DNA of 64,000 nucleotides from an uncultured delta proteobacterium (GTDB taxonomy: Bacteria > Desulfobacterota > Binatia > Binatales > Binataceae): the NCBI GenBank assembly GCA_963836955.1, contig CAWILO010000004.1, positions 152,916-216,915 on the forward strand, written 5' to 3'. Below, one piece after another: positions 15,217-31,747 of this stretch; positions within the stretch are counted from its first letter, which is position 1; the number at the start of each line of letters is the position of its first letter. The notes beneath the pieces were generated by a model that had not been told where the DNA came from, did no database searches, and saw nothing but the letters and a program-made list of their open reading frames with translations. The translations under genes and the position numbers were made by a program.

Positions 15217-16200
15217 CTATGAGTTCACGTGCTCAGCGAGGGATGCAAGCCGCGCTATCAGCCCTACCGCATTGTCCCGGTAAATGCGCTCGCGATCCTT
15301 CTCGCTGAAAAACTCGCTCGATTCGAGCTGCTGATTGGTACCTAGGACTACCGAGTCAGGGGCCCAGGGCCAATCGCTCCCATAGACAATATGCGAAGTG
15401 TCGGAAATCTGTAGCAACGATGAGAGCGTGTGCTTCGATCCGGCTAAAGCTGTGTCGTAATACAGCCTGCGCAGGTAAGACATCGCGTCTCCTTTAATCG
15501 CAGGCTCTCGCGCGATTGCGCCGCCAACCCTCGTGATCCTTTCGGCCAAGATTGGCAGCGCGCCACCATTGTGCGGAACGATAATTCGAATGTCCGGGCA
15601 CCTCTCGAGCGTTCCGCTGAAAATCAGGTTCGTCACCGCACGCGTAGTATCGAATGGGAACTCGATCATCGGCCGCGCATAGCCCATTGCACAGTCCTTC
15701 CAGCAACTAGGCGAGGTGGGATGAATGAAGATCACCGTTTTGCGGCGATTCAGCTCATCGAAGATCGGATCGAACTTCTTATCACCTGGATAGGTGCCTC
15801 CAGCATTTGTCTTGAGTGCTATTCCGTCCGCGTGAAGGACATCGATCGCATAGGCTAGCTCTTCGAGCGATCCCTCAACGTCAGGCATCGGTAGTTCAGC
15901 GAAGAGTCCGAAACGTGTCGGAAATTTCGCGACGGTGTCAGCCCCCGACTCATTGACCCTCCGAGCAAGTCGTCTGCCGGCTGCGTCGTCGCCGTAATGC
16001 ACCCCCGGCGACGAAATCGATAGCACTCCGGTAGCGATTCCAAGCTTGTCGTAGGTCTCCAACGCTCTTTCAGGACTCCATTCCGGGTAACCTCGCATAC
16101 CGTCAGGATGGACAATCCCCGCTCCACGCAGTTCATCCGCGTAGCCGGGAGGCAGGTAGTGTGCATGTACATCAATCTTGCCAGTAAGGTCTGATTTCAT
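15217..16200 (-). CDS. amidohydrolase-2 family (ACMSD-like decarboxylase/hydratase)
   Basis: Start at MKSDLTGKIDVHAHYLPP (metal-binding HxH). Conserved HPTSP and DxD blocks. The ORF track's N-terminal extension is rejected. Confidence 0.8.
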   Translation of the reverse strand: MKSDLTGKIDVHAHYLPPGYADELRGAGIVHPDGMRGYPEWSPERALETYDKLGIATGVLSISSPGVHYGDDAAGRRLARRVNESGADTVAKFPTRFGLFAELPMPDVEGSLEELAYAIDVLHADGIALKTNAGGTYPGDKKFDPIFDELNRRKTVIFIHPTSPSCWKDCAMGYARPMIEFPFDTTRAVTNLIFSGTLERCPDIRIIVPHNGGALPILAERITRVGGAIAREPAIKGDAMSYLRRLYYDTALAGSKHTLSSLLQISDTSHIVYGSDWPWAPDSVVLGTNQQLESSEFFSEKDRERIYRDNAVGLIARLASLAEHVNS

Positions 16201-16220
16201 AGTCACTAATCCAATTAATC

Positions 16221-16286
16221 CAGTGGGGCGGGCCGCCGTGCCCAGTGGGGCGGGCCGCCGTGCCCAGTGGGGCGGGCCGCCGTGCC
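16221..16286. repeat. perfect 3 x 22-bp direct tandem repeat (CAGTGGGGCGGGCCGCCGTGCC) in divergent promoter region
   Basis: Read directly. Three identical head-to-tail copies lie between the amidohydrolase start (16200, -) and the epimerase start (16425, +). Confidence 0.9.
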
Positions 16287-16424
16287 CGCCGAATGTGCGA
16301 GCATCATCCCGGACGATCACGAAGATAATACGGACTCTACAGCATAGATTGTATTGCCTCCAGCGCTTATCTTGACAATAACGCGGCCGCACACGCGGTC
16401 ATGAAACGAAGTTAAGGAGAAATC

Positions 16425-17309
16425 GTGATGCGTGTCTTCGTCACTGGTGCCACAGGATTTATCGGCGCTGCCCTTGTCCACGAGCTAATCAACGCCGGCC
16501 ATCAGGTGCTCGGTCTTGCGCGCTCAGATGCGGGCGCCAAATCGCTGGTCGCCGCGGGCGCGCAAGTGCATCGCGGCGATCTTGATGACCTCGAAAGCCT
16601 GCGCAGTGGAGCAGCCATATCGGATGGCGTGATTCACCTCGCCTTCAATCACGACTTCTCGAAGTACGTCGAGAACTGTCAGGCAGACAGGCATGCTATC
16701 GAGGCGCTCGGCTCGGTGCTCGTTGGATCAGACCGGCCGCTGGTCGTTACCTCGGGCACCGCGGTGGCCTTCGTTCCGGGCCGCGTCGCAACCGAAGACG
16801 ATCCGCCCGTGCCCAGCTCGATGATGCCGCGCAGCGCTTCGGAAGAAGCTGCTACCGAGATGGTATCGCGGGGCGTGCGCGCGACGGCGATGCGCCTGCC
16901 GCAGGTCCACAACCGGCTCAAGCATGGCCTCATCACTCCCCTGATCGAGATAGCCCGCGCGAAGGGCGTCTCGGCGTACGTCGGCGACGGGCGCAACCGA
17001 TGGCCCGCGGCTCACTTGCTCGATACCGCGCGGCTATACCGGCTGGCGCTCGAAAAGGGCCTTGCAGGAGAACGCTTTAACGCGGTCGCCGAAGAAGGCG
17101 TGCCGCTGCGGGAAATCGCTGAAGCAGTAGGCCGGCGCATCAACGTGCCGGTCGTCTCAAAAACCCCCGAAGAGGCCTCCGAACATTTCGGCTGGCTCGC
17201 GTTCTTCGTGGGTAACGACGCTCCTGCCTCAAGCGCGAGAACGCAGGAACGCCTGGGATGGCGCCCAACGCAAACCGGCCTCATCGCCGACCTCGAGCAT
17301 CCAGAGTAA
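16425..17309 (+). CDS. NAD(P)-dependent epimerase/dehydratase family (atypical SDR, NmrA-like)
   Basis: RBS AAGGAGA upstream. VFVTGATGFIGAALV Rossmann motif. 294 aa. Confidence 0.8.
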   Translation: MMRVFVTGATGFIGAALVHELINAGHQVLGLARSDAGAKSLVAAGAQVHRGDLDDLESLRSGAAISDGVIHLAFNHDFSKYVENCQADRHAIEALGSVLVGSDRPLVVTSGTAVAFVPGRVATEDDPPVPSSMMPRSASEEAATEMVSRGVRATAMRLPQVHNRLKHGLITPLIEIARAKGVSAYVGDGRNRWPAAHLLDTARLYRLALEKGLAGERFNAVAEEGVPLREIAEAVGRRINVPVVSKTPEEASEHFGWLAFFVGNDAPASSARTQERLGWRPTQTGLIADLEHPE

Positions 17310-17401
17310 TTCGAAGGCCACAACAGATACGATACAAGGCCTGAACGGACAGCGACCCACGGCGACCGCGCAACGCTCCAGCGGTCGTTAAGAATCAGGC
17401 T

Positions 17402-17911
17402 TCACACACCTGCCCGCCGCCGGCTTGAGGCTTCTGTCTTATGCAAATAGCTCGTAAACCCATCGCCCGGCGGCGCGATCGAGTTTTGCATCATGATCAA
17501 ACTGATTTGCCCCCGATGGTATTCGCCATGAACTGTCACGTGCGTCAGCATTTCTTCCCGTGACATGCGGCCCGGCAAGCCATCGGTAAATGTAAAGTCG
17601 ATACGCTCGCCCAACCGTGCTTCATCCAGAAGCGATACATAGTTGATATACCACTGATCGTTGGTCTTGATCGCCGCCGACAATTCTTCCAGCGATGGCG
17701 CCTGGCCTGCGTTGGGCGAGGTGTATCCGTGCTCAGTTCCCGTCAAGTTCGCAGCGAAGATCCGGTCGACAGCATAAGTGTGGTTGAGGACTCTGACGGC
17801 GATCTCCTTTGCAGCAGAGGCATCGTCAAATTGTCGCATTGCCGTAAGAATCTCTTCGTTGGCCTTTGCCTTGTAGCTGAAGACCCGTTCTAGCGTGCTG
17901 ACTTGATCCAT
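17402..17911 (-). CDS. DinB/YfiT-like damage-inducible family protein
   Basis: HGEYHRGQ metal-binding motif near the C-terminus. 169 aa. Confidence 0.8.
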   Translation of the reverse strand: MDQVSTLERVFSYKAKANEEILTAMRQFDDASAAKEIAVRVLNHTYAVDRIFAANLTGTEHGYTSPNAGQAPSLEELSAAIKTNDQWYINYVSLLDEARLGERIDFTFTDGLPGRMSREEMLTHVTVHGEYHRGQISLIMMQNSIAPPGDGFTSYLHKTEASSRRRAGV

Positions 17912-17954
17912 CTTCTTTCTCCCGATTGAGATAATAGCGAACTCGCCCTCTTAG

Positions 17955-18105
17955 GAGGCTCTGCGTAACCGGCCCGGCCGTCTGTCTCCTCGCCTGTTAG
18001 GGCGAGAATGAAGGTGCGGGTCCTTGTGCAGCGCGCTCTTTTCCGCGCGATTCAGGATTCTGCCTCCGCTCTGAACACGCACGCCCGGGTTACCCAAAGC
18101 TCTGC
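17955..18105 (+). repeat. copy A of ~175-bp structured intergenic repeat (MITE/REP-like)
   Basis: About 85% identical to the reverse complement of 37936..38112. Shares the internal hairpin CTCGCC(C)TGTTAGGGCGAG and the GAAGGTG(C/A)GGGTCCTTGT block. Confidence 0.6.
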
Positions 18106-18123
18106 TCTAAGGGATCATTTCCA

Positions 18124-18906
18124 TCACACTGATTGCGAAGGCTTCCTCGCGGTCACGGTGCGCGCAGGAGGAAACGTCCAGAAACTGAGACCGGAGATTT
18201 CCACATCGATCATATCCGACTTGCGCAACTCGTCGGCGTAGAGGTCGGCGCCATGGAGGTCGGAAATCGCCACCTGGCCGCCTTGCTTGAGGGTGCGCAC
18301 GATTTCACGGATGGCTTCGCGGCGTCCTTCGCCGCTGGTAATGTTGTGGATGGCGAAGTGTGCGACGGTGGCGTCGAAACTGCCGTCGGCGAAGGGCATT
18401 TTGCGCATGTCGCCGTCATCAACGCTGACTCGCTGCGCGACTCCCTCCAGCGCGGCATTTCTTAGCGTGGCTTCACGCGAATTGTCCGACTGCTGCCACT
18501 GCGACCACAGATCGATGCCTACCGCGCGACCTCGCGGCACCAGCTTTGCCGCGGCGATGAGCAGGAGCCCGTGCCCACAACCGACATCGAGCACGGTTTC
18601 GTCTCCGCGGAGCTTCAAGCGCGCCAGGATACGGTCGCGTGCGTGGAGTTTACCGAAGCGACTGCTGGCGAACATGAGAGTCGCGAGGATCAAAAAGCAA
18701 AAGCCAGAAATTTGAAGCGTGTAAGCCAGGCCGAGGTGCCGGCTCGAAGTCCATACGAGAACGAAACCAATGATCGCTCCCGCGAGGCCGAGGACGAACA
18801 TCGCGTAAACGGCTGCACCCGCATCGAGACCATAGTCCGGCGCTTGTCTGCTCATGACCCTGCTACCTGCTTGTGTGGACATCGTCGTGACTTGCGTTTT
18901 CATCAT
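18124..18906 (-). CDS. membrane-anchored class I SAM-dependent methyltransferase
   Basis: Two N-terminal TM helices, then VLDVGCGHGLL motif I and a DxHG-containing fold. 260 aa. Confidence 0.7.
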   Translation of the reverse strand: MMKTQVTTMSTQAGSRVMSRQAPDYGLDAGAAVYAMFVLGLAGAIIGFVLVWTSSRHLGLAYTLQISGFCFLILATLMFASSRFGKLHARDRILARLKLRGDETVLDVGCGHGLLLIAAAKLVPRGRAVGIDLWSQWQQSDNSREATLRNAALEGVAQRVSVDDGDMRKMPFADGSFDATVAHFAIHNITSGEGRREAIREIVRTLKQGGQVAISDLHGADLYADELRKSDMIDVEISGLSFWTFPPARTVTARKPSQSV

Positions 18907-18962
18907 CGATAAAATACAAGTGATCGCTCACAATTGTAAACTCGCATTCCGAGGCTCGTGCG

Positions 18963-19589
18963 ATGGCGCAAAAACCGCAAACAAACCCCAGAAAATCCGC
19001 CTCTCAAGAGCGATCGCGTCTAACCGTCGATGCCCTTCTCGAAGCGACTGCTCGCATTCTGATGAAAGAAGGTTATGACCGGACGAGCACCAACCGGATC
19101 GCCGAGCTGGCCGGCGTCAGTATCGGCTCGCTCTACCAGTACTTCCCGAGCAAGGAGGCGCTGGTAGCGGCTGTTATTGACCGTCATACACAAGAAATTT
19201 CCGGGGTGACGCGCAAGGCCCTGCTCAAGGCGGCTGCGCTCCCGCTCGAGGCCGCGGCGCGCGAATTCGTTTCAGTTGCAATCGACGCTCACCGCGTCAA
19301 TCCCAAGCTGCATGGCGTCCTTGCGGAACAGATCCCGCGCGTCGGGCGGCTCGAAAACATCGAGGCAAATATCCGAGACGGTTATGCACTGGTCCGGGGC
19401 TATCTCGAGGCGCATCGCGATGAGATCGACGTCGCCGACCTCGATCTCGCGGCCTTCGTCCTGGTGACTGTCGTGGAGGCGCTGACCCACGCAGCAGTCC
19501 TGCGCCGCCCAGACATCCTCACCGGCGACAAAGCAAGACACTTTGTGGACGACGTAACCCGCCTGGTAGTCCGCTACCTGAAAGCCTAG
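18963..19589 (+). CDS. TetR/AcrR family transcriptional regulator
   Basis: N-terminal HTH (GYDRTSTNRIAELAGVSIGSLYQYFPSKEAL). Divergent from the methyltransferase gene. Confidence 0.85.
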   Translation: MAQKPQTNPRKSASQERSRLTVDALLEATARILMKEGYDRTSTNRIAELAGVSIGSLYQYFPSKEALVAAVIDRHTQEISGVTRKALLKAAALPLEAAAREFVSVAIDAHRVNPKLHGVLAEQIPRVGRLENIEANIRDGYALVRGYLEAHRDEIDVADLDLAAFVLVTVVEALTHAAVLRRPDILTGDKARHFVDDVTRLVVRYLKA

Positions 19590-19724
19590 GTCCCGCCAAC
19601 GCCCCTTCAGCAAAGGCCAACAATTCGCCCGCTCGCGCTGACCGTTTGTGTCCGCCATTTGTCGGTCGCCGTTGCTCTGGTAAACCCATTTCGACGATTG
19701 AGTTTTGAATAAAACGGAAATCGC

Positions 19725-20159
19725 TTGGCTCCCTTAAATCCGCCGATAAAGTTGCTCGAACGCACCCGCTGGAAAGATCGGGACACGTTCGCGAGTCTCA
19801 TCAAGGCCAATCTCGGCAAAATAAAAGCTCGCCAACTAATCATTTCTGCCGAGCACGTTCCGGGGTTGATCGACAAGATAGCAGATCACCTTGACGACAC
19901 TATGGAACCCGGAGCGGAGTTTCAGTTGGATGCATACCAACCACCGCGCGAAACAACGAAGAGGAAGCGCAAACCTTCATCTAGGGTCCCTAGGGGGACA
20001 GCAAAGTTATGGAAACAACTTGTTGCCAGCGAGGAACAAGCGCGCATTGAAATACGCGTTTTCACAAAAGGGAAGGCCTTCACACTCTTTTTCGAGCCGA
20101 TCAAAGCGGACGATGAACTCGAAAACGCGTTCTGGAAGGACGAGTTCGGAGACGGATGA
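19725..20159 (+). CDS. hypothetical protein (first gene of low-GC islet operon)
   Basis: 144-aa ORF in a ~50% GC stretch, tightly followed by the paralog array. No family recognised and no obvious SD. Confidence 0.4.
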   Translation: MAPLNPPIKLLERTRWKDRDTFASLIKANLGKIKARQLIISAEHVPGLIDKIADHLDDTMEPGAEFQLDAYQPPRETTKRKRKPSSRVPRGTAKLWKQLVASEEQARIEIRVFTKGKAFTLFFEPIKADDELENAFWKDEFGDG

Positions 20160-20170
20160 ATCGTAGGTCG

Positions 20171-20536
20171 ATGAATCTTAGCCACGCAGCCGCGCTCGCG
20201 CTTGTGGGCTGGTACTTGATGGTGCCGCCGATGGCGCATAAAGAAGACTGGCAACTAGGCGGTCCTCGTGGGCCGGAAAGAGCCCCGTTGAGCAAATGGT
20301 TTACCTACGATTGGTTTGACACCGCTGACGCATGTACGAAGGCGCGCGATTCGCTCATGGCGAGGGCGTCATCCAATGCCCTCAATGACTATCATCGATG
20401 GCTGGCTGGTCGTGCCCCATCGGACGACCTACTTGGCGAATGGGACAGTACATACAGCACCGTCCTTGCGCTCAATGACGCCTACGGCCGGTCGCTGCGC
20501 ATTGCGACCGACGATCCTAGGCTCAAGGGAAAGTAG
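20171..20536 (+). CDS. small secreted protein, paralog 1 of tandem array
   Basis: MNLSHAAALALVGWYLMVPP hydrophobic leader. C-terminal ...IATDDPRLKGK shared with paralogs 2 and 3. Stop TAG lies 1 nt before the next ATG (AAGTAGGATGAA junction, repeated at each gene boundary). Confidence 0.5.
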   Translation: MNLSHAAALALVGWYLMVPPMAHKEDWQLGGPRGPERAPLSKWFTYDWFDTADACTKARDSLMARASSNALNDYHRWLAGRAPSDDLLGEWDSTYSTVLALNDAYGRSLRIATDDPRLKGK

Positions 20537-20537
20537 G

Positions 20538-20909
20538 ATGAATCTCCGCCACGCCGCCGCGCTCGCGCTCGCAGGCTGGTATCTTGTCACTCCCCATGCT
20601 TTGCCGTCCTCACGTGAACCAAATCTCTCTTTACCGCTATCACAATGGTCGCGGTTCGGACCCGTGCCGTCGAAAAGTGATTGCGAAGCCAGACTTTCGG
20701 CGTCGATGCAAAAGAACGATGATCCGACGATTCGCGAGAAGCTCTTTAAGGAGCAGCTGCCAAGCGTACGTGCTGAATTGCGGAGTATGTCGCCGAACCA
20801 GAAAATGCCCGACAGTTACTACGACAAAGCATACTTTGATGATTTACATCGTTACTTAAAACTTTCGCAGTGCATCGCAAGCGACGATCCGCGCCTCAAG
20901 GAAAAGTAG
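20538..20909 (+). CDS. small secreted protein, paralog 2 of tandem array
   Basis: MNLRHAAALALAGWYLV leader. Two Cys (SKSDCEAR, SQCIASDDPRLKEK). The same junction sequence leads into paralog 3. Confidence 0.5.
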   Translation: MNLRHAAALALAGWYLVTPHALPSSREPNLSLPLSQWSRFGPVPSKSDCEARLSASMQKNDDPTIREKLFKEQLPSVRAELRSMSPNQKMPDSYYDKAYFDDLHRYLKLSQCIASDDPRLKEK

Positions 20910-20968
20910 GATGAACCTACGCGCTGCCGCGCTCGCGCTCGTGGGCTGGTATCTGATGTCGCCCCTAG

Positions 20969-22143
20969 GGAAGCTCTGCACAGGTCTTAACTGGGCCGCT
21001 ATTTGAGATGTAAGTGAGCACTTTCAGGAAGGAGAGGCGACAGTGCGGTAGGTTGTTGGCCGCTCGGAGCGGCCAGCCACATTGCTATTCTCGCCGGTCC
21101 GGGTCACAGGGAACACCTCGCTCCGGCCGGGAGCAGTTGGCGGCGCAGTTGGTAGAGATTAGCCAGTGCGAACATGGTCTGCGCCCGCGCCAGATTCTTG
21201 GCCAAGCCGCGATATCTCACTTTGGTGAAGCCCCACAACTGCTTGACCACGCGGAAGGCATGCTCGCCGCAGGCGCGAGTGCGCGAACGCGCCCGATTGA
21301 TCATGCGCCAGCGTTCGCTCAACGGCCGCCAGGCAGTGGGACGGCGATTGATTCGATAATGTATCCCCCAGCTTTCAAGGAACTCTCGGTCGTCTTCTTT
21401 CCAGTACGCCTGATCGCCGAACACCGCGCGCTCCTCTCCATGCAAAAGCTCCGGCAGCTGAGTGACATCGGCGACCGCGGCATCGGTCGCTTTTACGGTG
21501 TGAACGATACCGCGCCGGTCGGCGCCGATGTGCAACTTCATCCCGAAATGCCAGTTCTTGCCCTTGCGCGTCTGCTTCATCTCGGGGTCGCGCTTCGCGC
21601 TGGCGTTTTTGGTGGAACTGGGCGCCGCGATGATGGTCGCATCCACGATGGTCCCCGAGCGCAGCAAAAGGCCGCGCGCTTCGAGCAAGCCGCCAATCGC
21701 GTCGAAGATTGCACTGGTCAAACCGTGCTGCTCCAGCAGATGGCGAAAGCGCAGGATGGTCGTCTCATCCGGCACCACGTCGTCGCCCAACTCCACTCGC
21801 GCGAAGCGCCGCATCGACTCGCTGTCGTAGATCGCGTCTTCCGCCTGCGGGTCGGAGAGATTGAACCATTGCTGCAGAAAGTAGATGCGCAGCATCTTCT
21901 CAAGCCCCAGCGGCTGGCGGCCGTTGCCGGCTTTGGGATAATGAGGCTCGATCAGCCTAAGCAGCCGCGCCCACGAGATTACCGCATCCATCTCGGCCAG
22001 AAACCGCTCGCGCCGGGTGACCTTGCCCTTCGCGCTCCAGGCCATCGAAGCAAACGTCCGCTGACTACCCATCACCACACCTCCCCATCCACCGATTCGA
22101 CCTTTCCTTTCTACACGAATCGACAAACTTGTGCAGAGCTTCC
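20969..22143 (-). mobile_element. IS5-family (IS5 subgroup) insertion sequence, 1175 bp, apparently intact
   Basis: Imperfect terminal inverted repeats GGAAGCTCTGCACAGG (left) and GGAAGCTCTGCACAAG (right, revcomp). Flanked by 4-bp direct duplication CTAG (20965-20968 and 22144-22147). Single transposase gene inside. Confidence 0.85.
21104..22072 (-). CDS. IS5-family DDE transposase (InsH-like)
   Basis: 322 aa from MGSQRTFASMAWSAKGKVTRRERFLAEMDAVISW... The blocks EPHYPKAGNGRQP, HLLEQHGL, DATIIAAPSSTKN, RDPEMKQTRKGKNWHFGMKLHIG and LANLY are near-identical to E. coli IS5 InsH. Confidence 0.9.
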   Translation of the reverse strand: MGSQRTFASMAWSAKGKVTRRERFLAEMDAVISWARLLRLIEPHYPKAGNGRQPLGLEKMLRIYFLQQWFNLSDPQAEDAIYDSESMRRFARVELGDDVVPDETTILRFRHLLEQHGLTSAIFDAIGGLLEARGLLLRSGTIVDATIIAAPSSTKNASAKRDPEMKQTRKGKNWHFGMKLHIGADRRGIVHTVKATDAAVADVTQLPELLHGEERAVFGDQAYWKEDDREFLESWGIHYRINRRPTAWRPLSERWRMINRARSRTRACGEHAFRVVKQLWGFTKVRYRGLAKNLARAQTMFALANLYQLRRQLLPAGARCSL

Positions 22144-22390
22144 CTAGTTGATCACAATGCGAACAAAATAGTCTACGAAGCGCCGCTAACATATTGGGAA
22201 CACGAGGGGAGTTTCGATACAGCGACCGAATGCGAGCGCAAGCGGAAGGATGATGTTCGCGTGATGAGTAACCTCAGAACGAATAGCACGGATCGCAGTC
22301 CAGGCTCTGACCTCGGCCTCAACTCGGCTCTGGCGGCTAAATGCGTCGCGTCTGACGATCCCCGGCTGAAGGAAAAATAACTACAAAGCT

Positions 22391-23152
22391 ATGGCGAAGT
22401 TCGAAGAACGATTCGGTCTTGTGGTTGGAGTGGATGAAGCGCGGGAGCGCTTCGTGAATCGCGCCCACTACGTGATCTTTACGAAGTTTGTCCTCACAGA
22501 TCAGCACTCCAGATACGTTGACGCCGTAACGTTTGGTCTGGGCAGACCCGTACAGTTCGATGCGTCACTCAGAGAAATCGTCGGGCGAGATTTTCACGAC
22601 AATCTGAAGGCAATCGAGTACGTTCGTCGGGCAGCAAACAATAAAGCCGCCCTTGATCAGATCGTCGCTCAGATTCTGCGGGAATCAGAAGTCGATCTAG
22701 GTGTTCGGTGGGAAGACGGGGTGTTCGTAAAAGCGGGAGCGCCTCTGCTCGACGACAAGCTGGTAAGAGATGTGCTCGGATGGGCGCGCGAGAAAGAATA
22801 TGAAATCGTGCTCGCCCCCTTTGAGAAGGGTCTGCGGCACTTCCTTGAATCCACAAAACGTCCTGAAGTTCTTTCAGATGTTGTTACCGATATGTACGAA
22901 GCGCTTGAAGCCGTCGCGAAAATCGTCACAGAGCGAAATGACGATCTGTCCAGCAACCGTGAGCGATTCATCAAGGCCGTTCGCGCGCCCGACGCGTACA
23001 AAAAAATCCTGAAAGAATACATCGATTACGGATGCGAGTTTCGTCATGCTGCCGACGCTGCGGGACAAAAGCCCGCGCTCTCACCTGAAGAAGTTGAATC
23101 GTTCATCTATCTGACTGGCGTTTTTGTGCGCTTTGCGATGAGGACGCGCTGA
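22391..23152 (+). CDS. hypothetical protein (last gene of low-GC islet)
   Basis: 253-aa ORF starting 10 nt after the paralog 3 stop. Low-GC codon usage. No family confidently recognised. Confidence 0.5.
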   Translation: MAKFEERFGLVVGVDEARERFVNRAHYVIFTKFVLTDQHSRYVDAVTFGLGRPVQFDASLREIVGRDFHDNLKAIEYVRRAANNKAALDQIVAQILRESEVDLGVRWEDGVFVKAGAPLLDDKLVRDVLGWAREKEYEIVLAPFEKGLRHFLESTKRPEVLSDVVTDMYEALEAVAKIVTERNDDLSSNRERFIKAVRAPDAYKKILKEYIDYGCEFRHAADAAGQKPALSPEEVESFIYLTGVFVRFAMRTR

Positions 23153-23322
23153 AGTTCTGTTCCCTCTCCAGGGCTGCCGCTGTTTGCGACCAACATTTCG
23201 GGCGCGGCGTCAAAGCCGCACGCGCAGAGGGAGTTGCACCTGATCGGAGACGATTCGCTGCCACCATGTTCGATGGGTGTCCTGACGACACTGCGGCCGT
23301 GAACAGCGTGTGTCCGCGTTTT

Positions 23323-23351
23323 TTGACACCTCGCGGGCTCGGTTGTATAGT
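23323..23351 (+). promoter_or_regulatory. near-consensus sigma70 promoter (TTGACA-17 bp-TATAGT) for thiamine operon
   Basis: Read directly. TTGACA at 23323-23328, 17-nt spacer, TATAGT at 23346-23351. Sits immediately upstream of the TPP riboswitch. Confidence 0.55.
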
Positions 23352-23354
23352 CGG

Positions 23355-23450
23355 ATCAGGCTGGGGGTGTGCTTTATACGCACTGAGAGCTCCCTCGGGA
23401 GAACCCCTCGAACCTGATCCGGGTAATGCCGGCGTAGGGAAGCCAACGGC
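23355..23450 (+). promoter_or_regulatory. TPP (thiamine pyrophosphate) riboswitch / THI element
   Basis: GGCUGGGGGUG...CUGAGAG...ACCC..GAACCUGAUCCGGGUAAUGCCGGCGUAGGGAAG matches the THI-box consensus. It is followed by the hairpin CCGCTTCCCC-ACACCA-GGGAAGCGG overlapping the thiS RBS region. Confidence 0.85.
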
Positions 23451-23506
23451 GCAACGTTCGCGGCTGCGCCTGGGCCGCTTCCCCACACCAGGGAAGCGGC
23501 TCAATA

Positions 23507-23725
23507 ATGCCCGACTCCATCGCAACCTCAATCACTCTCAACGGCGACCCGTACCCGCTCCACGCCGACACTCCCCTGACCGCCCTGCTGGAGCGCCTCA
23601 ACATGCGCCGCGGCCGCGTGGCGGTCGAAATCAACCGCGAGATCGTGCCCAAGGCCAGTTACGATGCGACCATCGTAAGGGCGGGCGACCAGGTCGAAAT
23701 AATCAACTTCGTCGGCGGCGGATGA
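23507..23725 (+). CDS. thiS: sulfur carrier protein ThiS
   Basis: 72 aa ending in GG. Sits between the TPP riboswitch and thiG. Confidence 0.85.
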   Translation: MPDSIATSITLNGDPYPLHADTPLTALLERLNMRRGRVAVEINREIVPKASYDATIVRAGDQVEIINFVGGG

Positions 23726-23767
23726 TTCTTTTAGCGCCGCTGCCGCGGGAATGGACACCGAAAAAAA

Positions 23768-24544
23768 ATGCAAGACACTCCTTTTGAATTGGGCGGAAAG
23801 AAATTCAAGTCGCGGCTGATCGTCGGCACCGGCAAGTACCGCGACTTCGCCGAAACCAGGGCCGCGGTCGAAGAAAGCGGCGCCGAAATCGTGACCGTCG
23901 CGGTGCGCCGCGTGAATATCACCGATCGCGGCAAGGAAAATCTGCTCGACTACCTCGACCCCAGGCGCTACCAGATTCTCCCCAACACCGCCGGATGCTT
24001 CACCGCCGAGGAGGCGATTCGCACCTGCCGCCTCGCGCGCGAGGTCGGCGTCGGCGATCTCGTGAAGCTCGAGGTCATCGGCGACAAGCAGACTCTGTTC
24101 CCCGATGTCGCCGCGACCCTCGAAGCGGCGCGCGTGCTGGTCAAGGAAGGTTTCAAGGTGATGCCGTATATCACCGACGATCCCGTTACTTGTCTCCGGC
24201 TCCAGGAGCTGGGATGCGTAGCCGTGATGCCGCTGGCGGCGCCGATCGGCTCCGGCCTCGGAATCCGCAATCCATTCAACCTCGCGATCATCATCGAGCA
24301 GGCGAAAGTACCGGTGATCGTCGATGCGGGCGTCGGCACCGCCTCAGACGCCGCCGAGGCGATGGAGCTGGGATGCGACGGCGTTCTGATGAACACCGCG
24401 ATCGCTGGCGCGAAGGATCCAATCGCGATGGCGCGAGCGATGAAGCTCGCGGTCGAAGCCGGCCGGCTCGCATATCGCGCCGGCCGAATCGAGCGCAAGC
24501 TCTACGCCACCGCGTCGAGCCCGCTCACGGGCTTGATCGGGTAG
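23768..24544 (+). CDS. thiG: thiazole synthase
   Basis: 258 aa. [24 protein letters not shown] start and conserved ThiG barrel blocks ([14 protein letters not shown]). Confidence 0.95.
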
Positions 24545-24552
24545 GGCGCGCC

Positions 24553-25230
24553 TTGTCGTCGCGCCCACGCGTCAGCTTCCGCCTCTACCTGATAACCGAT
24601 CGCCACGTCGTGAAGAACGGCAACCTCGTCTCCGCTTGCGAGGCGGCGCTGTCAGCCGCGCCGCCCGGAACCGTCGCGTTGCAGCTCCGCGAAAAAGACT
24701 TACCCGCGCGCGAACTCTACGAGCTGGCGCTCCGCCTTCGTGATACTTGCACGCGCACCGGCGCGCCGCTGATCGTGAACGAACGCGTCGACGTCGCAAT
24801 CGCAGCAGGCGCCGACGGCGTTCATCTTCCGTTCAACTCGATTGGCGTCAGCATGGCGCGCAAGCTGCTCGGCCCCGACAGACTTGTCGGAGTGTCGAGC
24901 CACTCGCCGCCCGACGTCGCGGGTCAATCGCGCGAGGGCGCCGACTTCGCCGTATTCGGTCCGATCTTCGATCCGCTGTCGAAGCCCGCCACCGGGCCCG
25001 CGTGGGGTCCAAGCGGACTCAGCGCAGCGTGCGCCGCGGGCGCGATTCCAGTCTTCGCGCTCGGCGGAATCACGGCGGATCGCACGCGCGACATGTTCGC
25101 GTCTCCCGAGCTGGCTGCGCGACCCGCAGGAGTCGCGTCGATCGGCGCGATCTTTGCCGCCGACTCGCCCGCTCTCGCTACTGCTGCGATGCTGTCGGCG
25201 CTGAACGCGTCGCGGACTCGGCAGCAATGA
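24553..25230 (+). CDS. thiE: thiamine-phosphate synthase
   Basis: TTG start giving LSSRPRVSFRLYLITDR, the typical ThiE N-terminus. The upstream part of ORF 23995..25230 overlaps thiG and is rejected. Confidence 0.8.
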   Translation: MSSRPRVSFRLYLITDRHVVKNGNLVSACEAALSAAPPGTVALQLREKDLPARELYELALRLRDTCTRTGAPLIVNERVDVAIAAGADGVHLPFNSIGVSMARKLLGPDRLVGVSSHSPPDVAGQSREGADFAVFGPIFDPLSKPATGPAWGPSGLSAACAAGAIPVFALGGITADRTRDMFASPELAARPAGVASIGAIFAADSPALATAAMLSALNASRTRQQ

Positions 25231-26089
25231 CCGACTGCGCGGCGTCGAGAAGAGTCTCCGGACGCGGCAGCTCCCGATAATAGGGTGACGTAAAAGTCCA
25301 TCGCACGACGCCATCGCGATCGAGCCCAAAAAACGCGGGAATCGCGTTGTCGGGCTCTCCATTGCGATGGTGCTGTACGAGACCGAGCGGCCCCAGGATC
25401 GATTCGTTGTTGTCGCTCAGCAGCGGGATCTTCGTGCGGAGAAATCCAGCGAGCATCTTCGATCGTTCGACCGGATCCGCGCTGATCGCGATGATATCAA
25501 CACCAGCTCGGCGAAAATCGTCCGCATGCGCGGTCAGCTCGGCAAGCTCGAACCGCGAGAATGGGTCGAAGTCCCCGCGATATATGAAAACCAAAGTTGC
25601 TCGAGCGTCGGATGGCACCGGTCCGCGATGGATCGAGTCGTTTTGATCGGTGAGCGCGAAGCTCGGGAAGCGTTGTCCCACCGCGAGCTTCAAAGTGAAC
25701 GGTGGATTCCGCGTCACGCGCATCGTGTAGCTGACGAATCGCCCGCCGCCTGCTCCTACGACGATGCATGCCAGGAATGCGAACAAGCCGAACCCGAGTT
25801 TGGCGTGGGGTGACGCGAGTCCGAGTGCGAGTCGCAATCCCGCGATCGAAAGCAAGATTGCGGCGGCCGCGATCGCGAACGCGGGCCACGGAATTCGTTC
25901 GTGGATACCCATCCACGGCACCGACCAGAACGACACCAGTACGTATTCGTAGAGTCCGAAGCCGGATGCTATCAGGATGACGGCGCCGATTGCCCGGATT
26001 GGTTGAAAGGGCGGGGTAACCCAGGGCTCGTCGTAAACCTCCAGCGCGACCTCGTCCGGGCGCGGCTCCTCCGGTTCCGATGTGGCCAT
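25178..26089 (-). CDS. membrane-anchored redoxin/AhpC-TSA-like domain protein
   Basis: N-terminal TM helices and a C-terminal thioredoxin-like fold (TLVFIYRGDFDPFSRFELAEL). The peroxidatic Cys position reads Ser, so it may be non-catalytic. Confidence 0.55.
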   Translation of the reverse strand: MATSEPEEPRPDEVALEVYDEPWVTPPFQPIRAIGAVILIASGFGLYEYVLVSFWSVPWMGIHERIPWPAFAIAAAAILLSIAGLRLALGLASPHAKLGFGLFAFLACIVVGAGGGRFVSYTMRVTRNPPFTLKLAVGQRFPSFALTDQNDSIHRGPVPSDARATLVFIYRGDFDPFSRFELAELTAHADDFRRAGVDIIAISADPVERSKMLAGFLRTKIPLLSDNNESILGPLGLVQHHRNGEPDNAIPAFFGLDRDGVVRWTFTSPYYRELPRPETLLDAAQSVIAAESATRSAPTASQQ

Positions 26090-26724
26090 CAGTTGAGCAT
26101 CTTCACTTTCAACTCGTCGAAGGAAAGGAGGTCGACTCCCTCCTGCTGCAATTTTTCATTGAAGGTTGGTGATTCTTCTCCGACAACAGCGACAGCGTCC
26201 CTGACCAAATGGAGTTTCGGGCCGACGCCGGTGAGCGCACTGATCTCGCGCTCGACGCATGCCTCGGTGTACACGCCGTACATCACGATGTGCTCGAACG
26301 GTCGGAGTACGAGCCGCAGGATGGCGCTAAGGTGTTCGTTGTTGGCGAGCTTCTCGAACTGCTGGCGGCGAAAGATGATTTCTCCGTCATGCTCGAGGAC
26401 CTTCTTAATCTCGTCAGGAGTGTATTCGCGACTTTCCAGAGTCAGCGGATTGAGCGGTTTGGTTTCGTCGATTTTTTCCTGGCCGGGGGTGCCGGCCATG
26501 CAATGATCGGGGTACGGTCCGCCCCAACTCTTCAACTGCGGATCGCCCGGAACGTGGCAATCGACCGAGCAGACTATGCGCACCTTCTGATCGCGGGCGA
26601 GATCGGTAATTGCCTTCCACACCGGCACGATCTTCTCCGCGCCCTCGATGTGGAATTTGCCGTCGTGCAGGATGAAGTCGCGCTGCGTGTTGATGTCGTA
26701 GAAGATTGTGGTTTCGGCTTTCAT
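26089..26724 (-). CDS. isochorismatase-family cysteine hydrolase
   Basis: 211 aa. Conserved RIVCSVDCH... and the Cys-containing catalytic region. ATGA overlap with the downstream gene. Confidence 0.8.
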   Translation of the reverse strand: MKAETTIFYDINTQRDFILHDGKFHIEGAEKIVPVWKAITDLARDQKVRIVCSVDCHVPGDPQLKSWGGPYPDHCMAGTPGQEKIDETKPLNPLTLESREYTPDEIKKVLEHDGEIIFRRQQFEKLANNEHLSAILRLVLRPFEHIVMYGVYTEACVEREISALTGVGPKLHLVRDAVAVVGEESPTFNEKLQQEGVDLLSFDELKVKMLN

Positions 26725-26731
26725 AGTTTCA

Positions 26732-27646
26732 TCAGAAGTGTTCCGGCTCGTGTTGGCGGCGATTGTCGCATTCGAGCTGCAAGGTCAGGTGGTGGATATC
26801 GAACTTGGTCTGCAGCAGATGGCACATGTCGGCGAGCACTCGATCGCGATCCGCGTCCGCCGCGACTACCGCATGCGCGGAAAGCGCGATCTGCCGGGTG
26901 GTCAAGCACCAGACGTGCAGGTCGTGAACTTCCTGGGTGCCGCTAACGGCCAGCAGGTCGGTGCGCATTTCGTCGAGATCAATGTGTCGCGGCACCGATT
27001 CCATCAGGATGTCCACGCCCTCGCGCACCAGGCCCCATGAACCGTACAGCACCAGCCCTCCGATCAATATGCTCACGGCGGCGTCGGCCTGCATCCATCC
27101 GGTGAAATAATTCAGCGCCCCGGAAGCGAGCACGCCGATCGAACCAACTAGATCGGAAACCACGTGCACGAACACCGAGCGGACCGCCATTCCTTGCTTG
27201 TGACTGTGCGAGTCGGTCGAGGTCATCCACGCGGAAAAGGTGTTGACGCAGATTCCGACAATCGCGATAGCCATCACGGGCAGCCCTGAAACCGGCCGCG
27301 GATGTCGCAACCGTTCGGCAGCTTCGATCCAGATGAAGACCACCAGCACCCACAGAAACAGGCCGTTGAGCAACGCGCCCAGGATTTCCGCGCGAAGGTA
27401 GCCATAGGTTTTCCCCGAGGATGCGGGCCGCGTCGATACCCACAGGGTCAGCATCCCGAGGCACAAAGCCGCGATGTCGGTGAGCATGTGGACTGCGTCG
27501 GACAGCAGCGCCAGGCTGCCAGTGAGGTAGCCTCCGACCAGCTCGGTCAGGAGATAAACCGAGGTGACGCCGAGGACGATAAGGAGGCGGCGCTGATCCG
27601 AACCCGCGGTTGCATGGGGTTCGTGATTGTCCATCGAGGTCCGCAT
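26732..27646 (-). CDS. cation diffusion facilitator family transporter (CzcD-like)
   Basis: Six TM helices. HxxxD motifs (SDAVHMLTD, HVVSDLVGS). C-terminal cytoplasmic domain. Confidence 0.9.
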   Translation of the reverse strand: MRTSMDNHEPHATAGSDQRRLLIVLGVTSVYLLTELVGGYLTGSLALLSDAVHMLTDIAALCLGMLTLWVSTRPASSGKTYGYLRAEILGALLNGLFLWVLVVFIWIEAAERLRHPRPVSGLPVMAIAIVGICVNTFSAWMTSTDSHSHKQGMAVRSVFVHVVSDLVGSIGVLASGALNYFTGWMQADAAVSILIGGLVLYGSWGLVREGVDILMESVPRHIDLDEMRTDLLAVSGTQEVHDLHVWCLTTRQIALSAHAVVAADADRDRVLADMCHLLQTKFDIHHLTLQLECDNRRQHEPEHF

Positions 27647-27649
27647 TGC

Positions 27650-28171
27650 TTAATCATAGTGTATTAGCGAGAAGCAGTTGACCGGCGCGAGGCGCTCGCG
27701 GCCCTTGAGCGCGTCGAGCTCGACCACGAACGCGCATCCGATCACGTTGCCACCGATCTTTTTGACCAGCTGCAGCGCGGCGGCCGCGGTCCCCCCGGTC
27801 GCGAGCAGATCGTCAACCAGCAGCACGCGACCTTTGCCGGCAAGCGCGTCCTGATGCATCTGCAAGGACGCGCTGCCGTATTCGAGATCGTACGCCTGAT
27901 CCACATATTGGTAAGGGAGCTTGCCGGGTTTGCGTGCAATCGCAAGTCCCACGCCCAACCGATACGCGACGGGAGCGCCGACGATGAAGCCGCGCGACTC
28001 GATTCCGACCACGGCATCAACTTTACCGAGGTAAGGCTGCGCCAACTGATCGACCACCGCGGCGAAACCGCGCGCGTCGGCAATCAGAGGCGTGAAGTCT
28101 CTGAACATTATTCCGGGCTTGGGGAAGTCGGGAACGTTACGAATAAGTTTTTTGATTTCTTCGGCAGTCAT
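27650..28171 (-). CDS. apt: adenine phosphoribosyltransferase
   Basis: Start at MTAEEIKKLIRNVPDFPKPGIMFRD. PRPP-binding motif VLLVDDLLATGGT. Confidence 0.9.
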   Translation of the reverse strand: MTAEEIKKLIRNVPDFPKPGIMFRDFTPLIADARGFAAVVDQLAQPYLGKVDAVVGIESRGFIVGAPVAYRLGVGLAIARKPGKLPYQYVDQAYDLEYGSASLQMHQDALAGKGRVLLVDDLLATGGTAAAALQLVKKIGGNVIGCAFVVELDALKGRERLAPVNCFSLIHYD

Positions 28172-28228
28172 CCTTGAATTCCATCGCACCGGCGTCTCAT
28201 GCAGTCTCGCGTGCGGTGGTCAAAGATA

Positions 28229-28981
28229 CTAGCTGCCGCCAGCCGCGGCAAAGCTGATTCCATCCGACTGCGTCGGTTCAGGCAGGTAGGCAAGCGGGTC
28301 TTGCGCCAGGTTGTCGCGGCGTACTTCGAAGTGAAGATTCGCGCCAGTGGTACGTCCGGAGCGTCCGATCGCGCCGATCTGACGGCCGCGCTCGACTCGA
28401 TCGCCTTCGTTGACCAGGTTGCGCTCGTTATGGCCGTAAACCGTCACGTAACCATCGTCATGACGAATGATCACGGTGTTGCCATAGCCGTGAAGCGTGC
28501 CCGAAAAAATGACGACACCGCTATCGGCCGCGAGAACGGGAGTGCCGACTGGGGCCGAGATATCGACACCGTCGTGCATCGCGCCGTTGCGAATCCCAAA
28601 TCCAGACGAAACCACTCCTTGCGACACCGGCCACAGGAACTGGCGAGACGACCGCTCGCCGAGGTACCGATGCACTCCGCTCGACGCAGTTCCGATTGAT
28701 ACGGCGCGATACGAACCGGGAATCGTCAGCGTCTGGCCGACGCGCAGCTCGCGTGGATCGCTGAGCCCGTTCGCCGTCATCAGGCGTCCTACGCTGACTC
28801 CGTATTCGTTCGCGATGTGGTAAACGGTCTCGCCTGCAACGACGACGTGCGTGACGGGGCGTTGCGAAATGGCGGGAGAGTAGGTCGCAGGCGGCGAGCT
28901 GTCGCCGCATCCTGCAAGCGCGATCAACCCTGCGAGCGCGACTACCACGCTCGCGCGGGAAATCCAACGCGTCCCTGTCAT
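28229..28981 (-). CDS. LysM-domain M23 family metallopeptidase lipoprotein (NlpD-like)
   Basis: Lipobox LIALAGC. LysM (YHIANEYGVSVGRLMTANGL). M23 motifs HDGVDI and GNTVIIRHDDGYVTVYGH. Confidence 0.85.
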   Translation of the reverse strand: MTGTRWISRASVVVALAGLIALAGCGDSSPPATYSPAISQRPVTHVVVAGETVYHIANEYGVSVGRLMTANGLSDPRELRVGQTLTIPGSYRAVSIGTASSGVHRYLGERSSRQFLWPVSQGVVSSGFGIRNGAMHDGVDISAPVGTPVLAADSGVVIFSGTLHGYGNTVIIRHDDGYVTVYGHNERNLVNEGDRVERGRQIGAIGRSGRTTGANLHFEVRRDNLAQDPLAYLPEPTQSDGISFAAAGGS

Positions 28982-29042
28982 CCACTCCTCACGTCGTCCT
29001 GTCCCCACCGCCCCACATCCGGGCCGCGCGAAAGTCTGCGCG

Positions 29043-29702
29043 CTAATCCTGGAAGCCGTGCTTGCCCGTCATCTTCACAAATCGACACTCACCGAAATAT
29101 TCTTCGCTCCAGTGGCCGGTCTTGCGGCTGATACGCACGAGGGTCTGGAGTTCGTCTTCGCCAATCGGTGCAATCAGCCGCCCATTCGGCGTCAACTGAT
29201 TCAGCAGCGGGAGAGCAATTCCGGGCATCGCCGCCGTCACCATCACGACGTCGAAGAGCGCCTCTTCCGGCCATCCATCCGACCCGTCGGCGCATCGAAG
29301 ATAGACGTTGTTGAAGCCCATCGAGTTGAGAATTACGCGGGCGCGATCGTGAAGATGCGGGTTGAGCTCGACCGAATAAACAGTGCGCGCGAGTCGCGAC
29401 AGCACCGCGGTCTGATAGCCCGAGCCGGTGCCGACTTCGAGAACTTTCTCGGTGCCGGTGAGTTCGGCGACCTCGCTCATCAAAGCGACCATGTACGGTT
29501 GCGAAATGGTCTGCGAGTCGCCGATGGGCAGCGGGCCGTCGTCGTAGGCGTGCTCGTGAAGCTCGGCGGGGAGGAATCGATGACGGGCGACCGTGCGCAT
29601 CGCGGCCAGCACGCGCGGATCTTTTATTCCGCGGCGTTCGAGTTGCTCGAGCACCATCCGCTCGCGCGCACTTTCGAGGTCGTTCGCCATCGCCATGGCC
29701 AT
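29043..29702 (-). CDS. pcm: protein-L-isoaspartate O-methyltransferase
   Basis: VLEVGTGSGYQTAVL motif I. Classic pcm/nlpD neighbourhood. Start chosen at MAMAND. Confidence 0.85.
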   Translation of the reverse strand: MAMAMANDLESARERMVLEQLERRGIKDPRVLAAMRTVARHRFLPAELHEHAYDDGPLPIGDSQTISQPYMVALMSEVAELTGTEKVLEVGTGSGYQTAVLSRLARTVYSVELNPHLHDRARVILNSMGFNNVYLRCADGSDGWPEEALFDVVMVTAAMPGIALPLLNQLTPNGRLIAPIGEDELQTLVRISRKTGHWSEEYFGECRFVKMTGKHGFQD

Positions 29703-29784
29703 TATACAGATACGCCGGCCAACGAATAAGGTATCAGAGGCAGCGGGCTGAGGGGGCAACTTTTAGGTTCGGAGAAACAGCAGA

Positions 29785-30540
29785 ATGCCGTTTTTCGATT
29801 CGGCAGGAATCAGGATTAACTACGAGGACGTCGGCTCCGGCGAGCCCGTGATTTTGGTACACGGCTTTGCCTCCACGGCGGAGCACAACTGGGGCGGCAC
29901 CGGTTGGATTTCGGCGCTGTCGGCGAAATATCGGGTGATTGCGCCCGACGTTCGCGGGCATGGACTCAGCGACAAGCCGCAAATGCCCGAAGCGTACGGC
30001 TACGCAGGCATGGGTGCGGACGTTACGCGCCTGATGGACCATCTTGGGCTAGAGCGCGCGCTTCTGATGGGTTACTCGATGGGTTCGAGCATCGCGATCG
30101 AGCTGATGCTGTCCCATCCTGAACGTTTTCGGACGATCGTCTTGGGCGGAATCGCTTACGACGACGGCCTGGAGGACAAGGCGGATCGCGATGCGATTGC
30201 GGAAGCTTACCGTGCCGACGATCCCGCTACGATAAAAAGTACGGTGGCGAAAGCGTACAGGCGATTCGCCGAGTCGATGCCCAACGACTTGAAGGCGCTG
30301 GCAGCGCTGATCGACGCCGAGCGATCGTTGTTCGAAGCAGACAAGCTCGCGGCGGTGCGGATGCCGGTGCTGATCGTCGTCGGAACCGACGACGAGGCGA
30401 TCGGCGATCCCAAACCGCTGGCGACGATGATTCCGAGTGCACGGCTGGTGATGCTCGAAGGTCGCGACCATATGACAGCGCCAGCAGATCAGCGATTCAA
30501 GGATGTGGTGCTCGAGTTCTTCGACGGCGCGTCGCGCTAA
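29785..30540 (+). CDS. alpha/beta hydrolase
   Basis: HGFAS oxyanion region and GYSMGS nucleophile elbow. 251 aa. Confidence 0.8.
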   Translation: MPFFDSAGIRINYEDVGSGEPVILVHGFASTAEHNWGGTGWISALSAKYRVIAPDVRGHGLSDKPQMPEAYGYAGMGADVTRLMDHLGLERALLMGYSMGSSIAIELMLSHPERFRTIVLGGIAYDDGLEDKADRDAIAEAYRADDPATIKSTVAKAYRRFAESMPNDLKALAALIDAERSLFEADKLAAVRMPVLIVVGTDDEAIGDPKPLATMIPSARLVMLEGRDHMTAPADQRFKDVVLEFFDGASR

Positions 30541-30600
30541 GCCCGTGATCGCGGCGTTTACCGGACTACGTGCAGCCTGAGCCGCGCATTACGCGGCTCG

Positions 30601-31670: not shown

Positions 31671-31747
31671 TGGTCGGGGTGGCCGGATTTGAACCGGCGA
31701 CCACTCGCACCCCAAGCGAGTGCGCTACCAGTCTGCGCCACACCCCG
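31671..31747 (-). tRNA. tRNA-Pro (anticodon GGG)
   Basis: Minus-strand sequence CGGGGTGTGGCGCAGACTGGTAGCGCACTCGCTTGGGGTGCGAGTGGTCGCCGGTTCAAATCCGGCCACCCCGACCA. It has a 7-bp acceptor stem and an anticodon loop UUGGGGU (G37 typical of Pro). GTTCAAATCC T-loop and encoded CCA. Confidence 0.85.

Follow-up and report, generated by a model that had tools for sequence, protein, structure and literature searches.

The insertion sequence IS5 of Escherichia coli K-12 (IS5A; transposase InsH1) duplicates a 4-bp target upon insertion, for example CTAA or CTAG (PMC11677980). The element described here lies within the window, i.e. the whole 64-kb stretch of DNA that was analysed, and it shares with E. coli IS5 one long DDE transposase ORF and the DUF772 plus DDE_Tnp_1 architecture. 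Its transposase is 47% identical to InsH1 over 314 aa (E=2e-100), and its length is 1,175 bp, compared with 1,195 bp for IS5A. The ends of IS5A read GGAAGGTGCGAA(C/T)AAG; the E. coli IS5 end, GGAAGGTGCGAACAAG, agrees with the inverted repeat of the window element at 11 of 16 positions, and both start with GGAAG. The ORF starts 68 nt from one end in IS5A versus 71 nt here, and it stops 146 nt from the other end in IS5A versus 135 nt here. Both elements use a 4-bp YTAR-type target, which is duplicated, but the clade of the window element strongly prefers CTAG (25/37 copies), whereas for IS5 the target CTAA is often cited as well. When the element was compared with E. coli genomes by blastn, only 65% identity over 43% of its length was obtained, to other (non-canonical) IS5-family elements; a whole-element match to E. 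coli IS5 failed because the similarity at the DNA level is too low. Thus, the wording "strongly InsH-like" of the preliminary description, which was made from the raw sequence, is apt in that the transposase is a clear InsH1 homologue, but the element is not a close copy of IS5.

Among annotated entries of the plasmid collection, the best matches were ISPa41 of Pseudomonas plasmids and an IS5-family element of Acidithiobacillus caldus, which were compared by transposase only and showed approximately 54% identity over 98-100% of the protein (E ~1e-90). In usual ISfinder practice, identity of about 54% denotes a different IS, and judging from this figure the window element would be a different IS from ISPa41. 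Much closer are unnamed copies of 1,175 bp in Binataceae or "delta proteobacterium" MAGs and in soil metagenomes (L001-L026 and L086), which have GGAA(G/C/T)CTCTGCACA ends and CTAG flanks, as here. Their transposases are 78-98% identical to that of the window, and their insertion sites differ from the window site. L086 apart, they show DNA identity of only 72-84% and are sister IS species or isoforms.

Structure of the element and its transposase

The element has the following parts (window coordinates).

20969..22143, minus strand: complete IS5-family (IS5-group) insertion sequence, 1,175 bp, transposase antisense to the host gene cluster
20969..20984, plus strand: terminal inverted repeat, transposase-distal end, GGAAGCTCTGCACAGG (sequence and repeat/pattern search)
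22128..22143, minus strand: terminal inverted repeat, transposase-proximal end, with the minus-strand reading GGAAGCTCTGCACAAG
20965..20968, no strand: left CTAG copy of the 4-bp target-site duplication, at a position where orthologues carry just one CTAG
22144..22147, no strand: right CTAG copy of the 4-bp target-site duplication; the right junction is also found in Logan contig L081
22072..21104, minus strand: transposase gene, 322 aa plus stop, DUF772 and DDE_Tnp_1 (Pfam, NCBIfam, identity to InsH1, alignment of 49 homologues)

The 16-bp inverted repeats read GGAAGCTCTGCACA(G/A)G, and the two ends agree at 15 of 16 positions. The left junction (20965-20984) is ...ATGTCGCCC-CTAG-GGAAGCTCTGCACAGG... 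and the right junction (22128-22147) is ...CTTGTGCAGAGCTTCC-CTAG-TTGATCAC.... A repeat finder returned the pair of IS ends as the longest inverted pair of the region (21 nt, 95%, with the palindromic CTAG included). The pattern GGAAGCTCTGCACARG, allowing at most 2 mismatches, has two sites in the 64 kb, both of them IS ends; in the shuffle control the mean number of matches was 0.09, and none of 100 shuffles contained two. By the same end-pattern search, there is no second copy of the element in the 64-kb window. The G+C content of the element (61.2%) is the same as the window mean (61.0%). The G/A mismatch between the two ends is also present in L086, a 98.6% identical copy, and is therefore native to the element rather than a sign of decay. 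The span 20969-22143 with its length of 1175 bp, its imperfect inverted repeats and its CTAG flanks had been given in the preliminary description, and every coordinate was confirmed when the sequence was read again.

The mechanically called ORF on the minus strand (22192..21104) comprises 362 aa, and its ATG falls outside the IS. The true start of the transposase is the ATG at 22072 (MGSQRTF...), which gives a protein of 322 aa, since nearly all close homologues have 322 aa, the alignment places this methionine on residue 1 of E. coli InsH1, and a GGAGG-like sequence is found about 9 nt upstream of the ATG. The reading frame has no internal stops, as had been claimed. The protein matches the Pfam families DUF772 (PF05598, 2.6e-21) and DDE_Tnp_1 (PF01609, 8.9e-23), and it scores 331.9 bits against the NCBIfam equivalog NF033581 (transpos_IS5_4; cut-off, 140 bits), covering profile positions 1-285 of 285. 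Residues D144, D220, E270 and K277, which are invariant across 49 homologues including E. coli InsH1, are all present, and the protein carries the R-x3-E-x6-K signature together with the D, D and E residues, reading RACGEHAFRVVK. Every one of the 49 family-invariant positions is kept. An exact-product look-up found no identical 322-aa or 362-aa transposase product elsewhere on record; the same look-up found none for the exact products of paralogue 1 and paralogue 2, the two genes upstream of the insertion.

As in the IS5 group, the inverted repeats are short and begin with GG, the element falls in the range of about 1-1.5 kb with a single long ORF (1,175 bp, one 322-aa ORF), and a 4-bp duplication of a YTAR-type target is found, with CTAG on both flanks. 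The transposase profile matches, the DDE triad, the GGAAG... ends, the 4-bp CTAG flanks and the IS5-like architecture collectively support membership of the IS5 family, IS5 group, as proposed at first reading.

Disruption of a small gene at a CTAG site

The features on either side of the element are as follows.

20171-20536 and 20538-20909, plus strand: two intact tandem paralogues, 41-46% identical to restored paralogue 3
20911..20968, plus strand: 5' fragment of paralogue 3, codons 1-19, MNLRAAALALVGWYLMSPL; it now runs into the IS and stops after about 12 further codons
22148..22380, plus strand: 3' fragment of paralogue 3, VDHNANK...ASDDPRLKEK plus stop (in-silico excision, orthologues)

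It is very probable that the locus is explained by an IS5-group element that inserted at a CTAG of paralogue 3 and split the gene. The target would have been the CTAG over codons 19-20 of paralogue 3, a gene of 96 codons and the last in a tandem array of three paralogues that belong to an uncharacterised small-protein family of Binataceae, and the inserted element a single-ORF IS. Going by what is known for the family, the DDE transposase would have cut the 4-bp target in a staggered manner and attached the IS ends there, and repair would then have doubled the CTAG, leaving one copy on each side. This is an ordinary event and a textbook IS5-group insertion.

When the IS and one CTAG were removed in silico, the gene read MNLRAAALALVGWYLMSPL|VDHNANK...CVASDDPRLKEK*, a product of 96 aa in frame. 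The restoration of the frame (...MSPL|VDHNANK...) had been anticipated in the preliminary description, and it is borne out by orthologues that are collinear across the junction and have a single CTAG. Six intact orthologues (P0020, P0022, P0026, P0030, P0037 and P0059; 69-84% identical, 97-102 aa) could be aligned end to end with the restored product, and across the junction they read ...WYLMSPLVD... or near variants of it, WYL[ML].P[LI].D. In five orthologue loci the DNA reads GTCGCCGCTAGTCGATCA; the gene has a single CTAG in each of them, and this coincides with the insertion point. A metagenome scan for the left flank plus CTAG found one locus, which is an unoccupied orthologue, and no further occupied sites. 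Because members of this IS clade almost always lie between CTAGs, the flanking CTAG repeat alone is weak proof of a duplication; the duplication becomes convincing through the single CTAG in the orthologues.

The 5' fragment encodes the 19 N-terminal residues, including the family-invariant G-W-Y-L, and the 3' fragment lacks the native start. The split thus separates the conserved N-terminal GWYLM segment from the remainder and would have inactivated the gene; for annotation, paralogue 3 is to be marked as a fresh pseudogene. Read-through to the downstream gene of 253 aa is probably reduced by the 1.2-kb antisense insert. The plus-strand genes at 19725-23152 are tightly spaced and look like one operon.

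Given that IS5 alters gene expression at bgl, glpFK and flhDC in E. coli, the insertion could also be regarded as a regulatory event, which altered expression of the 253-aa gene, rather than as a simple knock-out of paralogue 3. Activation by IS5 has been documented (PMC11677980); here the distance from the IS end to the downstream 253-aa ORF is 244 bp, and the tight, operon-like spacing of the genes would suit such an effect. However, a promoter-like site at the IS end was not found, and the sister lineage described below has deleted 456 bp in the same 253-aa gene, which suggests that the cluster is dispensable. A scan of 19.5-23.4 kb for promoter- and terminator-like sites gave no excess of matches over shuffles, a result that says nothing about polarity or outward promoters. 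We consider a regulatory event very improbable, and disruption of paralogue 3 is the reading that is followed here.

Paralogue 3 is a member of a large family of unannotated small proteins, whose confidently predicted fold has no PDB match. A profile built from the three paralogues has at least 4,592 homologues, all without annotation, and where organism names are given they are Candidatus Binatus or Binataceae. Family members are about 95-125 aa long, with invariant G-W-Y-L near the N-terminus, W37, C49, and D-P-R near the C-terminus. The AlphaFold model of the orthologue P0020 is confident (pLDDT 89, pTM 0.77), and in this model the signal-peptide-like GWYLM segment is predicted to form a beta strand. 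Searches of the paralogue family against Pfam, NCBIfam, PADLOC and PHROGs returned zero matches, and the PDB gave neither a sequence match nor a fold match (best Foldseek E-value, 3.1). Among the neighbours of the orthologues are an integrase and DUF6946.

Restored paralogue 3 lacks one codon, His5, after MNLR (20911-20925), where both paralogues and 6/6 orthologues have His. The sister genome also lacks this codon (an in-frame 3-bp loss), and the loss is therefore older than the insertion.

The region of the small genes has a lower G+C content (52-55%) and is flanked by a TetR gene and by a TPP riboswitch-thiS-thiG unit. Immediately ahead of thiS-thiG is the TPP riboswitch (23353-23457, plus strand; 77.6 bits), and a sigma-70-like promoter was matched at 23323-23351. 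A tRNA-Pro(GGG) gene is found at 31671-31747 on the minus strand.

An IS-free sister genome and the age of the insertion

The second contig with the ThiG protein of the window was used as the sister locus (L090; ENA ERZ25039605, 588,852 bp). It is collinear with window 16096-30543, with 99.0-99.6% nucleotide identity over 12.8 kb, and it has no IS at exactly this site; the alignment blocks abut there, with a 4-nt overlap at the target. Given that L090 is about 99% identical to the window yet free of the IS, the insertion is recent, and its age is at most, or about equal to, approximately 1% sequence divergence. The element would have arrived after, or close to, the split from the sister lineage. 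The description of the insertion as "recent and clean" was thus upheld by the empty site in a syntenic, 99%-identical genome. This is a dated insertion, absent from an approximately 99%-identical genome, in Binataceae, which is a little-studied soil lineage; its general importance is small, and the first reading, made from raw sequence, proved accurate.

The empty site of L090 (4834-4838) is CTGAG, compared with CTAG in the window (20965-20968), and reads CCCCTGAGTTG. The extra G shifts the frame of the sister paralogue 3, and it is the only difference in the target region within 190 nt on either side. There are about nine other indel events between L090 and the window in the 12.8 kb, two of which, single-base indels at window positions 19827 and 19996, break a 144-aa ORF of L090 that is intact in the window. 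Because single-base indels break ORFs elsewhere in L090, long-read consensus error is the simplest explanation of CTGAG; it could also be an artefact of a mixed population, an independent mutation or an excision footprint.

The last of these would reverse the order of events, in that the insertion would be older than the split and the sister would have lost the IS by imprecise excision, with CTGAG as the footprint. The position of the extra G, inside the target CTAG itself and alone within 190 nt on each side, speaks for this reading, as does the chance of an indel in the target tetranucleotide, which we estimate from the L090 indel count at about 0.3-0.4%; one precise IS5 excision has moreover been reported in E. 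coli (PMC11677980). However, CTGAG is CTAG plus one G, and simple end-joining, whether of CTAG...CTAG or of the terminal bases of the IS, could not produce it. A true footprint is therefore unlikely. In addition, the other single-base indels of L090 break ORFs that are intact in the window, as is typical of long-read consensus error, and if the population was mixed for the insertion, an artefact of the consensus would look identical. An insertion that predates the split is accordingly considered very improbable, and the recent insertion remains the preferred reading. Three of ten CTAG sites in the L090 comparison, the target included, have a difference within 3 nt, one being a G-run indel and one a plain SNP; CTAG-linked errors in the sister assembly are suggestive only.

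The source of the window is a contig of 304,795 bp from a metagenome-assembled genome, and IS elements are classic sites of misassembly, so that the IS might be a repeat placed at this locus by mistake during assembly. However, the sister genome is collinear on either side of the site, and a canonical CTAG is found at both junctions. The right junction is also reproduced base for base by an independent de Bruijn assembly of run ERR10755940, in which Logan contig L081 is identical to window 22118-23428. With this evidence, an assembly artefact is extremely improbable.

L090 also lacks the 456 bp of window 22485-22940, so that the 253-aa gene has lost 152 codons with its frame preserved. The sequence ACGA is found at both breakpoints, and the loss looks like a microhomology deletion. 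The accessory cluster has therefore been damaged in different ways in the window lineage and in L090, which suggests that this cluster of small genes is dispensable.

Relatives of the element and target preference

A scan of one genome per species yielded 553 relatives of the transposase. The closest of these have 86-93% protein identity and come from MAGs labelled Deltaproteobacteria, "uncultured delta proteobacterium" or Candidatus Binataceae. The ends could be located for 37 complete copies, most of which are 1,175 bp long with identical GGAAnCTCTGCACA ends. Their flanks are distributed as follows.

YTAR flank on both sides: 37/37 complete copies
CTAG flank on both sides: 25/37 complete copies
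Identical flank tetranucleotide on both sides: 29/37 complete copies

The YTAR target preference, which had been put forward from general knowledge of the IS5 subgroup, is thus found in every complete relative. CTAG itself is scarce in the window (49 observed versus about 227 expected from base composition). The flanking YTAR tetranucleotides are not identical in 8/37 copies (L002, L003, L007, L010, L015, L016, L050 and L058), for example TTAG/CTAG. Two of these eight belong to a set of 99.9-100% identical copies, which suggests recombination between copies or motif errors, rather than age, as the source of unequal flanks.

Single Binataceae-like MAGs hold five copies that are 99.9-100% identical, as well as other identical pairs, all of related IS lineages. 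Among related transposases, the protein is 93% identical where the DNA is only 84% identical, which indicates purifying selection on the transposase. Soil metagenomes contain many members of this CTAG-specific IS5 clade, and long-read MAGs carry them in several copies, which matters for assembly breaks and strain typing.

The nearest known copy, L086, is an independent one at another CTAG; 1,159 of 1,175 nt are the same (98.6%) and 16 nt differ, and both of its ends equal those of the window IS. In L086 (positions 2172-2243 and 1-1016 of the contig), a different gene, also of 322 aa, lies 49 bp upstream of the IS. At the contig end, a CTAG separates the IS end from an inverted repetition of itself, forming a perfect palindrome, which is either a second copy in the regenerated CTAG or a fold-back assembly artefact.

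Probable capacity for further transposition

The element holds every part that is needed for further transposition. In E. coli, two IS5 copies that carry point mutations are unable to transpose (PMC11677980), and an intact ORF alone is therefore no proof of activity. Logan contig L081 starts with 26 nt of the IS plus CTAG, that is 30 nt, which equals k-1 for the Logan k of 31. Such a break is expected where two or more different flanks follow the IS end and its CTAG, and it suggests that this is so in the source sample. The identical copies within single MAGs and the purifying selection on the transposase, both described above, likewise speak for activity. On balance, the window element appears probably to be active at present.

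A real insertion of a single copy that is now dead or dormant, owing to a missense change or to a transposase promoter that is too weak, is rather unlikely. The fate of the point-mutated E. coli copies shows how such a copy could arise; the window has one copy only in 64 kb, its identical product is not on record elsewhere, and 16 of 1,175 nt differ from the nearest known copy, all of which would agree with inactivity. Against this, D144, D220, E270 and K277 and all 49 family-invariant residues are kept, the two ends are the same as in L086, the independent copy with 98.6% identity, the age of the insertion is below about 1% divergence, and the contig break at k-1 of IS plus CTAG points to several flanks in the sample. 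An active element is thus the reading that we favour.

Antisense open reading frame

An ORF of 377 codons (window 21014-22147, plus strand) is antisense to the transposase gene and codon-aligned with it. The transposase uses none of the codons TTA, CTA and TCA, and this leaves the antisense frame without stops over the whole coding region. When judged by the codon usage of 10 window genes, each of which has at least one of the three codons, such an absence has a P of about 0.005-0.006. E. coli IS5 is without this stop-free antisense pattern. The antisense frame is probably a shadow ORF, since its translation is far less conserved than the sense product (51-71% versus 78-93% identity). The avoidance of antisense stops is nevertheless stronger than expected. 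The alternative to a shadow cast by GC-rich codons is that selection keeps the frame open, either as an overlapping gene or through avoidance of TA-containing, target-like motifs, and on the conservation figures this would be distinctly unlikely. The stop-free antisense frame is also present in 27/47 relatives, down to about 52% protein identity, and several copies are open antisense over the full 1,175 bp (391 codons).
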